Shown here: positions 2,355 to 5,428 of the stretch, piece after piece | Layout of the letters: the number at the start of each line of letters is the position of its first letter | How positions within the stretch are numbered: position 1 is the stretch's first letter | Source of the DNA: a virus | DNA length: 5,428 nt | Reading direction: 5' to 3' (one strand) | UHGV virus genome: UHGV-0829476 | The notes under the pieces: model-generated | What the model was told of the DNA's origin: nothing | Database searches by the model: none | The model's input: the letters and a program-made list of their open reading frames with translations, nothing else | Made by a program: the position numbers and the translations under genes

Positions 2355-2545
2355 TACTTTGGAATTTAGACTATGACACTTGGCGCAAACTGTGGAGAAC
2401 TTATAAAGTTAAACCCTATGAAATGACTGGAGACCACGAATTCACCGAAGCAGTTATAAGAAGCTGCAAAACAGATGAGGAATTATTTCATAAATTTCAA
2501 TGGGAAACCATAGATGAAACATTTACAGAAAGGAGGAAAAAATGA
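2351..2545 (+). CDS. Hypothetical protein, 64 aa, translationally coupled between the 142-aa and 31-aa ORFs
   Basis: GAGGA at 2340-2344, 6 nt before ATG 2351. ATGA overlaps at both ends (2351-2354 and 2542-2545). Mixed-charge, W-rich sequence. No recognisable motif; possibly a VP5/protein C-like small replication or packaging factor. Confidence 0.6.
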   Translation: MILWNLDYDTWRKLWRTYKVKPYEMTGDHEFTEAVIRSCKTDEELFHKFQWETIDETFTERRKK

Positions 2546-2690: not shown

Positions 2691-2815
2691 AGGGAAACTT
2701 TAAATTTAACGCTTTAAGGAACAATTAAGAAAACTTTAAGAAAACCAAACCAGACCAACCGAGCAAGAGCCGCGAAACTCCGTTTCATAAAGCGTTCTTG
2801 CGACGATGAATCGGT

Positions 2816-2911
2816 GTGAGACACTGCGCGCCGTCGTGGCGCGCTGTCTCACTCTTAACGCGCGGAATGTGCATCCTTACACCGCGCGACAATGCGGGCT
2901 GACCGCATTGT
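2816..2911. other. Cluster of three contiguous GC-rich stem-loops in the long intergenic region; putative ssDNA structural element such as a complementary-strand (minus-strand) origin, primosome assembly site or packaging signal
   Basis: Hairpin 1 (2816-2852): GTGAGACA-ct-GCGCGCC / loop GTCGT / GGCGCGC-TGTCTCAC, 15 bp with a 2-nt bulge. Hairpin 2 (2859-2888): CGCGCGG / 16-nt loop / CCGCGCG, 7 bp. Hairpin 3 (2889-2911): ACAATGCGG / loop GCTGA / CCGCATTGT, 9 bp. Local GC is far above the roughly 40% genome background. None is followed by a T-run, so they are not classic intrinsic terminators. Confidence 0.6.
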
Positions 2912-2924
2912 AGAAAGGCATTGA

Positions 2925-3470
2925 ATGATTGCAGCAGCATTACAATACGCAGCGCGTAGAATTTTACTAGGGGGTTCATCTTCAAATAGGCGTATGAGAA
3001 ACAAAGCTTCAAATGATACGCCAAAGAAATATGAGCTTACTCACAATATAAAGCGCGCAGTATTTGACGACCCAAGATTACAGTTCCAAGAGGATATCCG
3101 CGTAGATTTGGCTCGACATTTTGATAAACTCAAAAGACGCGAAAACAACAAATTATGGCGAAAAAGGTATAGTATAACAAGAAAAGAATATGACAAAGAA
3201 ATTTTAAAAAAACGAGAATCTCAAAAAGACAAATTAGACAAGCTAATAGATAAAATACCCTCCGTGCCCTTTTTAACTTCAAAAACAAAAAGAACACTAA
3301 TTCAGTATAAGAAAGATTTTGATATAATCACAGGAAAAAGAAAAATATGCGAACAACGCGAAATGACAAGAGCCGAAATTATGAGAATGACAGGCGGAAA
3401 AGGCCTATCAATAAAATTCGCAAACAAGGGACTTCTAAGAAGTATCATTTGTAAAAAGAAAAGGAGATAA
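2925..3470 (+). CDS. Hypothetical highly basic protein, 181 aa (K+R about 30%), with predicted coiled-coil and nucleic-acid-binding character
   Basis: AAAGG at 2915-2919 upstream of ATG 2925; an alternative start is ATG 2994. The long ORF is improbable by chance in AT-rich DNA. K/R-rich throughout (KRRENNKLWRKRY, KEILKKRESQKDKLDKLIDK, CKKKRR*). Its stop lies 1 nt before the VP2 ATG, and the VP2 RBS is embedded in its last codons, indicating coupling. No homology to the canonical Microviridae proteins is recognisable by eye. Confidence 0.6.
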   Translation: MIAAALQYAARRILLGGSSSNRRMRNKASNDTPKKYELTHNIKRAVFDDPRLQFQEDIRVDLARHFDKLKRRENNKLWRKRYSITRKEYDKEILKKRESQKDKLDKLIDKIPSVPFLTSKTKRTLIQYKKDFDIITGKRKICEQREMTRAEIMRMTGGKGLSIKFANKGLLRSIICKKKRR

Positions 3471-3471
3471 G

Positions 3472-4350
3472 ATGCCTTTAGTAGCAGGTGCAATACTGGC
3501 GAGTGGTTTAGCAAATATATACGCTAATCAACAAAACAATGAAACAAATTGGGCAAGACAGCAACAAATAAACAAGCTCAACTATCAAGCTCAAAAAGAA
3601 TTCGCCCAAAATTCAATTCAGTGGAGAAAGCAAGACGCTTTGCGTGCTGGCATAAATCCTATTTATGCGCTCAATGCCTACGGCGCAAATTTTAGCCCTA
3701 GCTTCCAAGCAACAGGTAATAATCCAAACGATTATTCATTTTTAGGACAAAGCGCAGTTCAGGCAGTTAGCGCATATCAGCAAACGCAACAGGCAAAAGC
3801 CGACAAAGCAAGCGTTGCGCTAATAAAACAACAAACCGCCACAGAACAGGCACGAGAGCTAGAAAGCACGGCTCGCGCAAGCCTTATGATAAGTCAAGCC
3901 GACCAAATCGCAAATTCCGCGACCAAAACACAACAAAAAGTAAATATATCTGCAAACTCTATCCAAAGCACGCAAAATTTAGCAAACGAAATGAAAAAAG
4001 TTTTCGGCTCATATGACATTCAAACAATAGGTACAGGCAGAATTTCAGTAACTGAAAACAAATCGCGCACAGCTCAACAAAGCAGCGACAGCGAAATTAT
4101 GTCGCATATAAACGAATTAAACACACATAGAAACCGCAAACAAGCCATAAAAGAGCAACTCGAATTTTTAGGAAAAAAAACGGGCTATGTATGGAAAGAA
4201 ATCGACGCGGGACTATCGACTTACGATTTTGTAAAAACAAACCAAAAATACCGCACAGCAACACAAAAAAAAGCCGATTTTGAAAGAGCGATGAAAGAAA
4301 GCGACAGACTTTATAAAGAACACATAGAAAAATACGGAAGATATGACTAA
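3472..4350 (+). CDS. VP2: Minor capsid / DNA pilot protein VP2 (gokushovirus VP2, functional analogue of phiX174 H), 292 aa
   Basis: RBS AAGGAG at 3461-3466, 5 nt before ATG 3472. Hydrophobic N-terminus (MPLVAGAILASGLANIYA). The Q/N-rich segment and the RKQDALRAGINPIYALNAY block match the conserved gokushovirus VP2 motif (....AGLNP.LA). The C-terminal two-thirds is a Q/A/S/T-rich low-complexity, coiled-coil-like region typical of pilot proteins. Confidence 0.85.
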   Translation: MPLVAGAILASGLANIYANQQNNETNWARQQQINKLNYQAQKEFAQNSIQWRKQDALRAGINPIYALNAYGANFSPSFQATGNNPNDYSFLGQSAVQAVSAYQQTQQAKADKASVALIKQQTATEQARELESTARASLMISQADQIANSATKTQQKVNISANSIQSTQNLANEMKKVFGSYDIQTIGTGRISVTENKSRTAQQSSDSEIMSHINELNTHRNRKQAIKEQLEFLGKKTGYVWKEIDAGLSTYDFVKTNQKYRTATQKKADFERAMKESDRLYKEHIEKYGRYD

Positions 4351-4379
4351 ATCTAAATCTAAGAAAGGAGGAAAGCCTT

Positions 4380-4448
4380 ATGCGATGGTATCACACAAGA
4401 CGCAGACGCGCGCGCGCATTAAGACGAAGACGAAGACGAAGACGATAA
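4380..4448 (+). CDS. Tiny arginine-rich peptide, 22 aa (MRWYHTRRRRARALRRRRRRRR); putative DNA-binding/packaging protein analogous to phiX174 J and gokushovirus ORF8; not in the ORF track
   Basis: Consensus RBS AAAGGAGG at 4364-4371, 8 nt before ATG 4380. 15 of 22 residues are Arg. Located between VP2 and rep. Ends TAA 4446-4448. Confidence 0.6.
   Translation: MRWYHTRRRRARALRRRRRRRR
4422..4445 (+). repeat. Perfect tandem hexamer repeat (AGACGA)x4 encoding the poly-Arg tail of the J-like peptide
   Basis: agacgaagacgaagacgaagacga read directly from the sequence. Frame 3 gives RRRRRRRR; frame 1 gives DEDEDED. Confidence 0.9.
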
Positions 4449-4476
4449 ATTACTTCGCAAGGCTAATTTTAAAAAA

Positions 4477-5428
4477 ATGCCAACAATGCTAACACCAAAG
4501 GGGCATATCGCCTGCCCCGCTGAATTCTCATCTTTCAAATGTCAAAATCCTTACATAATGCGCTTTCAAGCAGGCGAAATGGACACAGGAACACCAAAAT
4601 ACAAAGCATTTCCGTGTAATAAGTGTATATTTTGTAAAAAGCGAAAGCAAAAGCAATGGACTACACGCCTATCATTAGAATGTGAGGCACACGAACATAA
4701 CAGCTTCGTAACACTCACTTATAAAGAGTATGACCCTTTTGTAGAAAGCGAACTATTTGTAAAATCACGCTCACTAGACTACACAGACATACAGAAATTT
4801 CATAAACACCTCAAAATGAATGTCAAAAGGCAAGGAGACGAAACTTATAAGCACTTCAACGCTGGCGAATATGGAGAAATCAACACACAACGCGCGCACT
4901 GGCACTTGATACTTTTTGGCTTTGCAGACACTGAAAGAAATCGCGAAAATATCTTTAAAATTTGGAAACATAGCGATTTGAAAGAAAGAGTTATCGAGGA
5001 GATAATCGATACAAAAGCCGTAGGTAAGTATGTCTCAAAATATGTGCTTAAAAACATAAATTTAAGCCCTACGGAATACGAAAGAATCCACAAACAAACC
5101 AGACCACTACATCACGGCTCGACAGGACTCGGCTGGAAAACGGCAAAAGCTAAATTTTTACAACCTGCATTAGAGAGCTTTAAAGAATTTGGCGACTTCA
5201 ACCATATAATCTATGACGGCAAAAAAGTATTCCTAGACCGATATTTAACGCACAAATTAGCCTTGCACTTAGGCGAAATTTTAGAATGCGGCCAGGGAAT
5301 TAAAAACGCTATTACGCACAAAGGTTTAGAAGAATTAAAAGCATATATAGCTGAAACAAAAGAAATTTACAAGCTCTATGCACCCGATGAATTCAACGAT
5401 GAAACGATACCAGACTACAAATACTACA
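4477..5428 (+). CDS. VP4: Replication initiation protein VP4/Rep (HUH rolling-circle endonuclease, Microviridae protein A-like), 3'-partial; 317 codons in the window with no stop
   Basis: My own frame-1 translation from ATG 4477 has no stop to the window end: MPTMLTPKGHIACPAEFSSFKCQNPY...FPCNKCIFCKKRK...SFVTLTYKEYDPF...RAHWHLILFGF...AVGKYVSKYVLKN... This contains the N-terminal Cys cluster, RCR motif 1 (FVTLTY), the HUH motif (HWHLIL) and the catalytic tyrosine motif (YVSKYV), the classic Microviridae Rep triad. Absent from the ORF track only because there is no in-window stop. Confidence 0.9.
   Translation, partial: MPTMLTPKGHIACPAEFSSFKCQNPYIMRFQAGEMDTGTPKYKAFPCNKCIFCKKRKQKQWTTRLSLECEAHEHNSFVTLTYKEYDPFVESELFVKSRSLDYTDIQKFHKHLKMNVKRQGDETYKHFNAGEYGEINTQRAHWHLILFGFADTERNRENIFKIWKHSDLKERVIEEIIDTKAVGKYVSKYVLKNINLSPTEYERIHKQTRPLHHGSTGLGWKTAKAKFLQPALESFKEFGDFNHIIYDGKKVFLDRYLTHKLALHLGEILECGQGIKNAITHKGLEELKAYIAETKEIYKLYAPDEFNDETIPDYKYY

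Follow-up and report, generated by a model that had tools for sequence, protein, structure and literature searches.

The window, i.e., the whole stretch of DNA that was analysed, is a complete microvirus genome of 5428 nt of the gokushovirus type, in which every gene is located on the + strand. The major capsid protein VP1 is encoded at 222-1916 (PHROG major head protein, E 3.5e-122) and is followed on the same strand by ORFs of 142, 64, and 31 amino acids, a noncoding region of 287 nt (2638-2924), a ribosome-binding site with an ORF of 181 amino acids (2913-3470, ATG at 2925), the pilot protein gene (3472-4350), and the gene for Rep (VP4), which starts at about 4487 and wraps round to about 138. 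The Rep proteins of the window's clade are matched by Pfam PF23343, a family that joins microvirus ORF2 and filamentous gpII. The 31-aa ORF (MNQSTKERISLWITAICGAIGTLWEMIKNLI, 2542-2637) stops where the noncoding region begins and has no PHROG match; its hydrophobic core is kept in L010, L012, L076, L077, and L014, and its product could be a small membrane or lysis peptide. An Arg-rich ORF of 49 amino acids with a RRRRARALRRRRRRRR run (4343-4492), likewise without a PHROG match, overlaps with the last part of the pilot gene and the first part of rep and probably encodes a DNA-binding (J/VP8-like) protein. Upstream of VP1, the sequence TTTTTTTGCTATAAT (154-168) represents an extended -10-like promoter candidate with a T-run, which was missed by the promoter consensus scan because it has no -35 region; L079 carries TTTGGTATAAT at the equivalent position.

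Relatives of the window were found by a VP1 protein search (L061 by a motif scan, see below), after which the corresponding contigs were looked up. The close genomes L010, L012, L076, and L061 (83% VP1 identity) form, together with the window, a close set of five, and the more distant genomes L014, L015, L016, and L077-L081 share 51-69% VP1 identity with it. A megablast search of the genome against the INPHARED phages gave no match and tblastn returned only relatives with a VP1 identity of ≤ 51%. A host or prophage search with a VP1 profile against 185k genomes revealed no close relative, the best match (30%) being to Treponema MAGs.

Folding of the noncoding region confirmed the three hairpins that the initial annotation had proposed at 2816-2911. 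SL1 (2816-2852) is a 15-bp hairpin of 8 + 7 bp with a CT bulge, found when folded as DNA and as RNA. SL2 (2859-2888) consists of an outer GC stem of 7 bp, a 5′ bulge GAAT, a short inner stem RTG..CAY, and a loop. SL3 (2889-2911) is a 9-bp hairpin that ends 2 nt short of the ribosome-binding site. The description of the stems as almost entirely G:C was too strong, as about 23 of 31 pairs are G:C, and that of the hairpins as directly abutting holds for SL2 and SL3, but not for SL1 and SL2, which are 6 nt apart. Upstream of them, SL0 (2763-2801) has an outer stem GCAAGA/TCTTGC around an unpaired GCCG, an inner hairpin (2774-2786), and the sequence AAGCGTT. These hairpins do not form a free-standing island, as had been assumed, but occupy the distal end of a noncoding cassette of about 250 nt (2662-2911), at the other end of which lies an element resembling the phiX174-type nick site (2662-2712, see below). 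The 181-aa ORF and its ribosome-binding site lie outside the element and delimit it on the 3′ side of the coding strand. The linker is separated from the hairpins by an invariant unstructured tract, CCAAACCAGACCAACC (2745-2760), whose minus-strand sequence, GGTTGGTCTGGTTTGG, includes a CTG. The heptamer TTTAAGG occurs seven times in the window compared to 1.1 expected copies, a number reached in none of 200 shuffled sequences. Its sites (92-98, 136-153, 208-214, 348-354, 2633-2639, 2713-2719) are concentrated at gene ends, ribosome-binding sites, and the two noncoding regions, and variants are also found in the linker between SL0 and SL-A, the stem-loop of the nick-site-like element.

The predicted stability of the hairpins is far beyond that of shuffled sequence. 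As DNA, 2816-2911 has a minimum free energy of -39.8 kcal/mol compared to -18.9 ± 2.3 kcal/mol for 200 dinucleotide shuffles, none of which was as good (z -9.0), and as RNA the value is -56.9 (z -7.1). The reverse strand of the whole region adopts an equivalent fold (z -6.9). The GC content, described from the outset as that of a GC-rich island in an AT-rich genome, is 59-62% in 100-nt windows compared to 40% for the genome, and the 100-nt window with the lowest energy of the genome falls into the island, 6.2 sd below the genome mean. A search of Rfam 15 returned no family for 2600-2950, not even at E ≤ 10, neither a tRNA nor a tmRNA was detected at the locus, and no promoter-like site was detected in 2763-2911 on either strand, nor were sigma-70-like hexamers present in the stems. 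The 79-aa minus-strand ORF (2785-3024), which is created by the GC island, is a real frame in the window. It is broken by frameshifts and stop codons in L012, L076, and L010 and is therefore spurious, as the initial annotation had held.

Stable GC hairpins between gene blocks might act as transcription terminators, insulators, or stabilisers of mRNA 3′ ends, functions that the intergenic hairpins of phiX174 have. This behaviour of the phiX174 hairpins is also the ground on which the authors of PMC9865509 advise caution. At the present locus such a function is very improbable. None of the three hairpins is followed by a U-tract or terminator-like site on either strand, in agreement with their initial classification as poor intrinsic terminators, the upstream stop codon is about 180 nt away with the nick-site-like element in between, and a separate canonical terminator is present in those relatives that require one.

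All three hairpins SL1-SL3 are present in the four close relatives. The identity of the 183-nt GC island within the close set is 91-99% compared to 83-88% genome-wide. For the 46-pair structure, 99.6% of the cells of this small sample of five sequences are paired, whereas slid controls reached 23-53%. Three pairs are doubly compensated, with one-sided changes in none: two in SL1 carry double changes in L076 and L010, and one in SL3 changes from T:A to C:G in the same two genomes. All stem substitutions in SL1-SL3 are compensated; the exception is a mismatch in SL2 of the window itself, where one inner-stem pair is affected. In a wider comparison, the most stable 100-nt window of the genome corresponded to one syntenic intergenic region in 12 of 12 clade genomes, 4.2-7.7 sd below the respective mean. 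The structure is under selection; its presence in relatives, compensatory changes, and excess stability, the three points on which the proposal could have failed, were each examined and each found.

Of the three hairpins, SL2 is the most widely conserved; it recurs in six lineages, and its stems covary throughout. When a covariance model was built from the island, it recovered SL2 in L080 and L078, and a purpose-written motif scan found its architecture in L015, L077, L078, L080, and the close group, on the cassette-sense strand only and not once in shuffled sequences. SL2 is not alignable by MAFFT across lineages, so the covariance model and a manual table were used. The 5′ bulge is GAAT or GAAA, the inner stem RTG...CAY, and the loop small. 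In seven distinct versions, 86 of 87 pairs are Watson-Crick pairs and both stems covary. SL1 and SL3 do not extend beyond the window's close group; at the same place, other lineages have different hairpins. SL0-like hairpins with changed stems and the unpaired GCCG and AAGCGTT kept are present in L015, L077, and L078. The tract at 2745-2760 is identical in all five close genomes, and a similar one is present in L016. G·T pairs occur neither in SL2 (87 pairs) nor in the stem-loop SL-A described below (95 pairs) nor in 230 cells of the close set.

Some further matches were noted during these searches. In L103, a distant gokushovirus, a perfect 13-bp hairpin with an SL2-like GAAT bulge (1850-1883; TGGGG gaat ACGGCGGA aaat TCCGCCGT CCCCA) sits in the Rep gene at the codons GEYGGKFRRPH directly before the HUH motif, and none was found in shuffled genomes. 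The single match of an SL1 17-mer in IMG/VR lies within a coding region of a 102-kb contig and was discarded as a chance match. Matches of the motif TTGTTGTAACC..TAGACAAG in IMG/VR and JGI metagenomes were nearly all chance matches in large-phage genes, with one true relative, L061. In L010, the linker between SL-A and the hairpins contains a partial tandem duplication of about 100 nt (2690-2830), including a degenerate second SL-A loop region, which indicates that the linker tolerates changes in length.

The element at the other end of the cassette (2662-2712) was captured with an nhmmer profile and is composed of a conserved box, TTGTTGTAACCTGG (2662-2675), and the stem-loop SL-A (2675-2712) with arms at 2675-2680 and 2707-2712 and a loop at 2681-2706. 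The arms of SL-A differ in every lineage and always pair; 12 stem sequences comprise 95 of 95 Watson-Crick pairs. The loop opens with a conserved ATA..(G/T)A.CAAGG. The profile gave one significant match in each clade genome, and the element is also present in about 75 of 87 distant gokushoviruses from IMG/VR and in the isolates Chp2, SpV4, and phiMH2K. In these genomes, the consensus is (T)GGTGTCAC(C/T/G)TAGC, followed by a covarying stem and a loop ending in ..(A/T)(A/T)CAAGG. On the other strand it reads stem-CC(C)TTGAT(A/G)T-stem-GCTAGGTGACACC, which is the order and spacing of the viral-strand origin of phiX174. This origin is given in the annotated record as CCCCCAACTTG|ATATTAATAACACTATAGACCACC (rep_origin at 4306), and the gokushovirus profile matches it at 4300-4316. 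As in the phiX174-type origin, the CTTG|AT motif of the gokushovirus consensus is followed by an AT-rich spacer and, about 21 nt downstream, by a GAC(A)CC box. In the window, the element reads CCCTTG|TCTATATATAACGCCAGGTTACAACAA on the minus strand with CTTG at 2692→2689; this is a variant, CTTGTC...GGTTACAAC, with unchanged spacing. The bar follows the cleavage position of phiX174, whose CTTG|ATA nick site is shared with pC194-type plasmids, and by this analogy a nick would be predicted between 2689 and 2688.

Based on the phiX174-like order and spacing and the profile match, the box and SL-A presumably constitute the gokushovirus Rep (viral-strand) origin, homologous to that of phiX174. Compared to the phiX174 origin (CAACTTG|ATATTAATAACACTATAGACCAC), the resemblance concerns 2662-2712 and not the hairpins: in both, a CTTG-type motif comes first and is followed by an AT-rich spacer, with the GAC(A)CC-type box 21-22 nt downstream. 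Unlike in phiX174, where the motif lies inside the rep gene, the gokushovirus motif is located in the loop of a covarying intergenic hairpin, and the window has CTTGTC instead of CTTGAT, on the non-coding strand. We found no description of gokushovirus cis-acting replication signals or of a nick-site hairpin in the searchable literature, the only related report dealing with other clades (PMC9865509); for general background on rolling-circle replication see PMC5714925. Two other candidates were rejected. ACTTGATA at the HUH codons (4905), considered as a phiX174-style origin within rep, is not conserved at the nucleotide level in L010, L012, L015, and L080. An ordinary promoter as the main reading of SL-A was dismissed since the arms covary as a hairpin, there is no -35 region at a workable spacing, and the hexamer degrades in L078-L080.

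The orientation of the element relative to the genes differs between clades. In about 75 of the 87 distant genomes, the three isolates, L014, and L081, the nick-type motif is located on the coding strand, as would be predicted if coding-sense DNA is packaged, which is the case in characterised Microviridae. By contrast, all ten genomes of the window's clade, the window included, have the element reversed, with the nick-like motif on the non-coding strand. L014 and L081, whose element is reversed relative to that of the window, have strongly structured GC-rich hairpins on the same side in the orientation of the element, and the minus strand of L014 carries AAGCGTT and GCCG. These features suggest that the whole cassette is reversed between the clades, although SL1-SL3 and the GAAT-bulged hairpin were not found in L014 or L081. 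In the VP1 tree, L014 and L081 are sister to the inverted clade and the outgroups have the usual orientation, which points to a single inversion event. The contigs concerned come from at least 10 independent samples, making an assembly artefact unlikely. Among the distant contigs, only L001 shows an origin-like element oriented like VP1 (498, +); at 7.5 kb this contig exceeds genome length and may be a concatemer or a misassembly.

Irrespective of gene orientation, structured DNA is usually found on one fixed side of the origin-like element. In 54 genomes, the first and the next 100 nt on the hairpin side exceeded the respective genome in structure, with mean z-scores of -1.7 and -1.3 and with 41 and 24% of the genomes, respectively, at ≤ -2, whereas 100 nt on the box side had a mean z-score of +0.1 and 2% of the genomes at ≤ -2. 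On the strand with the nick motif, the structured DNA is located 5′ of the nick site. Its distance to the element ranges from about 5 to about 130 nt among genomes.

This arrangement also bears on a possible function as RNA, be it as a folded 5′ leader on the transcript that encodes the 181-aa protein, VP2, and Rep or as a small noncoding RNA transcribed inside the cassette, with a role in protein binding, stability, processing, or translation. Several features would fit such a function. In the window's clade the hairpins reach within 2 nt of the ribosome-binding site, SL0 and SL2 keep unpaired nucleotides as found in protein-binding RNAs, TATAAT-like hexamers are present in the SL-A loop, and a strong cassette-sense intrinsic terminator lies at the far end of the L081 cassette, with a similar one in L155. 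These terminator-like hairpins with T-runs (L081 3393-3420, minus strand; L155 about 2490-2520, minus strand) are antisense to the genes, and cassette-sense RNA may be made. However, in the sister clade the element and the structured DNA are inverted, and in L081 the latter is flanked by a + strand intrinsic terminator and by an 11/12 sigma-70 promoter, so that it cannot be the leader of the downstream gene. Moreover, there is no G·U pair in more than 400 pair-cells, no Rfam family was matched at E ≤ 10, and neither a promoter nor a terminator was matched in the intergenic region of the window. As for the TATAAT-like motif, it is only weakly recognisable in L078-L080 and could just as well be the AT-rich spacer of the origin. 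A function as RNA is thus disfavoured and appears unlikely.

If Rep nicks the strand with the CTTG motif, the window's clade packages the strand complementary to the mRNAs, in contrast to the assumption of the initial annotation that the coding (+) strand is packaged. We see an even chance that the cassette of nick site and hairpin arm was inverted once and that this clade of gut gokushoviruses nicks, displaces, and packages the strand complementary to all mRNAs, i.e., consists of 'negative-sense' microviruses. A packaged strand is usually T-rich. The AT skew of the coding strand at four-fold sites is +0.27 to +0.66 in all ten inverted genomes, compared to -0.26 and -0.51 in the sister clade and a mean of -0.25 for 82 distant genomes. 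Skew alone was rejected as an indicator of the packaged strand, as there are genomes of usual orientation with A-rich four-fold sites, such as phiMH2K (L179, +0.33) and L115, L116, and L122-L125 (+0.39 to +0.72). On the terminal branches of the inverted clade, G>A changes at four-fold sites (15 of 61) outnumber C>T changes (4 of 62; p = 0.006) and C>A exceeds G>T, a pattern that mirrors that of two groups of usual orientation. When all synonymous sites were considered, the ratio of the C>T and G>A rates in the inverted clade was 0.78, which is not significant; of the six groups of usual orientation, four had ratios of 1.4-2.8 and two had ratios of 0.9-1.0. On balance, these data tend to support a flip of the packaged strand but go back to a single evolutionary event.

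To our knowledge, every ssDNA phage needs a start signal for the complementary strand. In f1 and in rolling-circle plasmids, the complementary-strand origin occupies the position 5′ of the nick. The hairpins of the window might serve as such an origin on the nicked strand, here probably the minus strand of the window, with the site nicked by Rep directly 3′ of them. We advance this interpretation tentatively and rate its chance at slightly below even. In the proposed mechanism, SL0-SL3 (2763-2911) would form the structured arm of a cis-acting replication cassette whose other end (2662-2712) would be nicked by Rep. On the nick-motif strand, the hairpins lie roughly 70-220 nt to the 5′ side of the nick and would therefore remain double-stranded longest during each round of rolling-circle synthesis. 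On the packaged circle coated with SSB, such very stable Watson-Crick hairpins would remain folded and could mark a primer site for a host enzyme (primase, RNA polymerase, or primosome), which would convert the ssDNA to the double-stranded replicative form. Since the cassette is inverted relative to the genes, the relevant single strand would probably be the minus strand of the window.

Priming at the DNA level is favoured by the selection on structure, the exclusive use of Watson-Crick pairs, and the fixed side relative to the origin-like element, as well as by the structured DNA of the sister clade, which cannot be a leader, by the general need for a start signal, and by the precedent of PMC9865509. 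In that study, conserved intergenic hairpins with compensatory changes were described in other microviruses and tentatively tied to negative-strand initiation, their function, according to the authors, being one that cannot be certified. The replication-linked DNA role proposed in the initial annotation, as complementary-strand origin or packaging element, is favoured on the same grounds: a conserved and compensated structure, the lack of G·T pairs, and the fixed position. We know of no separate packaging hairpin in microviruses, and none is expected, unlike in f1/M13. Several findings count against priming. The conserved unpaired GCCG and AAGCGTT of SL0 and GAAT of SL2 have no known reader, SL1 and SL3 are lineage-specific, promoter-like hexamers are absent, and there is no CS-6 on the presumed packaged strand. 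In addition, the hairpins directly precede a gene in the window's clade, and L081 and L155 have the cassette-sense terminator-like hairpins described above.

The hairpins could instead be part of the double-strand origin, i.e., auxiliary Rep-binding or cruciform DNA that acts in melting, termination of a round, or coupling to packaging and not in priming. The tight linkage to the nick-site element on a fixed side in many gokushoviruses would agree with this, perfect palindromes could extrude as cruciforms in the supercoiled replicative form, and the phiX174 origin is also flanked by a GC hairpin (CCCCgaaGGGG). In Microviridae, packaging is furthermore coupled to Rep-driven synthesis. Yet the hairpin sequences differ between lineages in which Rep and the nick element are conserved, unlike what is seen for a Rep-binding site, the distance to the nick element varies between about 5 and about 130 nt, and in phiX174 a 30-bp origin is sufficient. 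We consider this explanation improbable.

When a complementary-strand origin is assumed, a parallel in layout is offered by f1/M13, where the hairpins [B] and [C] form the minus-strand origin next to hairpin [D] with the gpII nick. Likewise, the window has back-to-back hairpins within one noncoding region immediately 5′ of the presumed initiator nick site: on the nick-motif strand, here the presumed packaged strand, they extend from 2911 to 2763 and precede the CTTG at 2692→2689. In contrast to f1/M13, the stems of the window form no -35/-10-like duplex, and there is no sequence similarity. The complementary-strand origin of G4 consists of three hairpins that are recognised by DnaG primase with SSB, primer synthesis starting at a 5′-CTG-3′ by the first hairpin. 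The window shares with this microvirus three adjacent stable intergenic hairpins, which form on either strand, the presumed packaged one included. On the minus strand, the unstructured tract 3′ of the cluster contains a CTG (2753→2751); a trinucleotide is expected by chance, and the tract is not kept in L015 and L077. No sequence relation to G4 is evident, and in G4 the complementary-strand element is far from the viral-strand origin, which is inside gene A. The PriA primosome assembly site of phiX174 is a hairpin defined biochemically, by the activation of the PriA ATPase on SSB-coated ssDNA, and has no sequence consensus. Of the precedents initially named (PriA site, G4 primase site, and M13 promoter hairpins), the general architecture is retained, and no resemblance beyond it could be demonstrated.

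The reekeekee- and roodoodoo-microviruses also have clade-conserved intergenic DNA hairpins with compensatory substitutions, for which a negative-strand start was proposed and not shown; they belong to other clades, have one or two hairpins, and no link to a nick site or its orientation was reported (PMC9865509). The single-strand origins of rolling-circle plasmids (ssoA and others) are folded ssDNA just upstream of the double-strand origin and act in an orientation-dependent manner (PMC5714925), an arrangement that the window resembles. Neither the RSB nor the CS-6 (TAGCGT/A) of ssoA is present in the window; what comes nearest is the AAGCGT of SL0, which sits in an internal loop and belongs to the cassette-sense strand, the complement of the presumed packaged one.

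Complementary-strand origins made up of intergenic hairpin clusters are already known; what is new here is the tie of such a cluster to a subfamily-wide phiX174-like nick-site hairpin and to an inverted cassette. In gut and environmental viromes, few ssDNA phages are as common as gokushoviruses. For these phages, the locus provides a testable map of a nick-site hairpin conserved across the subfamily and a structured arm, in which the complementary-strand origin is most plausibly sought. Should the inversion mean that the antisense strand is packaged, the rule that Microviridae package the coding-sense strand would have exceptions. This would affect the interpretation of strand-specific virome libraries, analyses of mutation spectra, and conventions of genome annotation, and it would mean that in a genome of 5 kb an origin cassette can be turned round as a whole.
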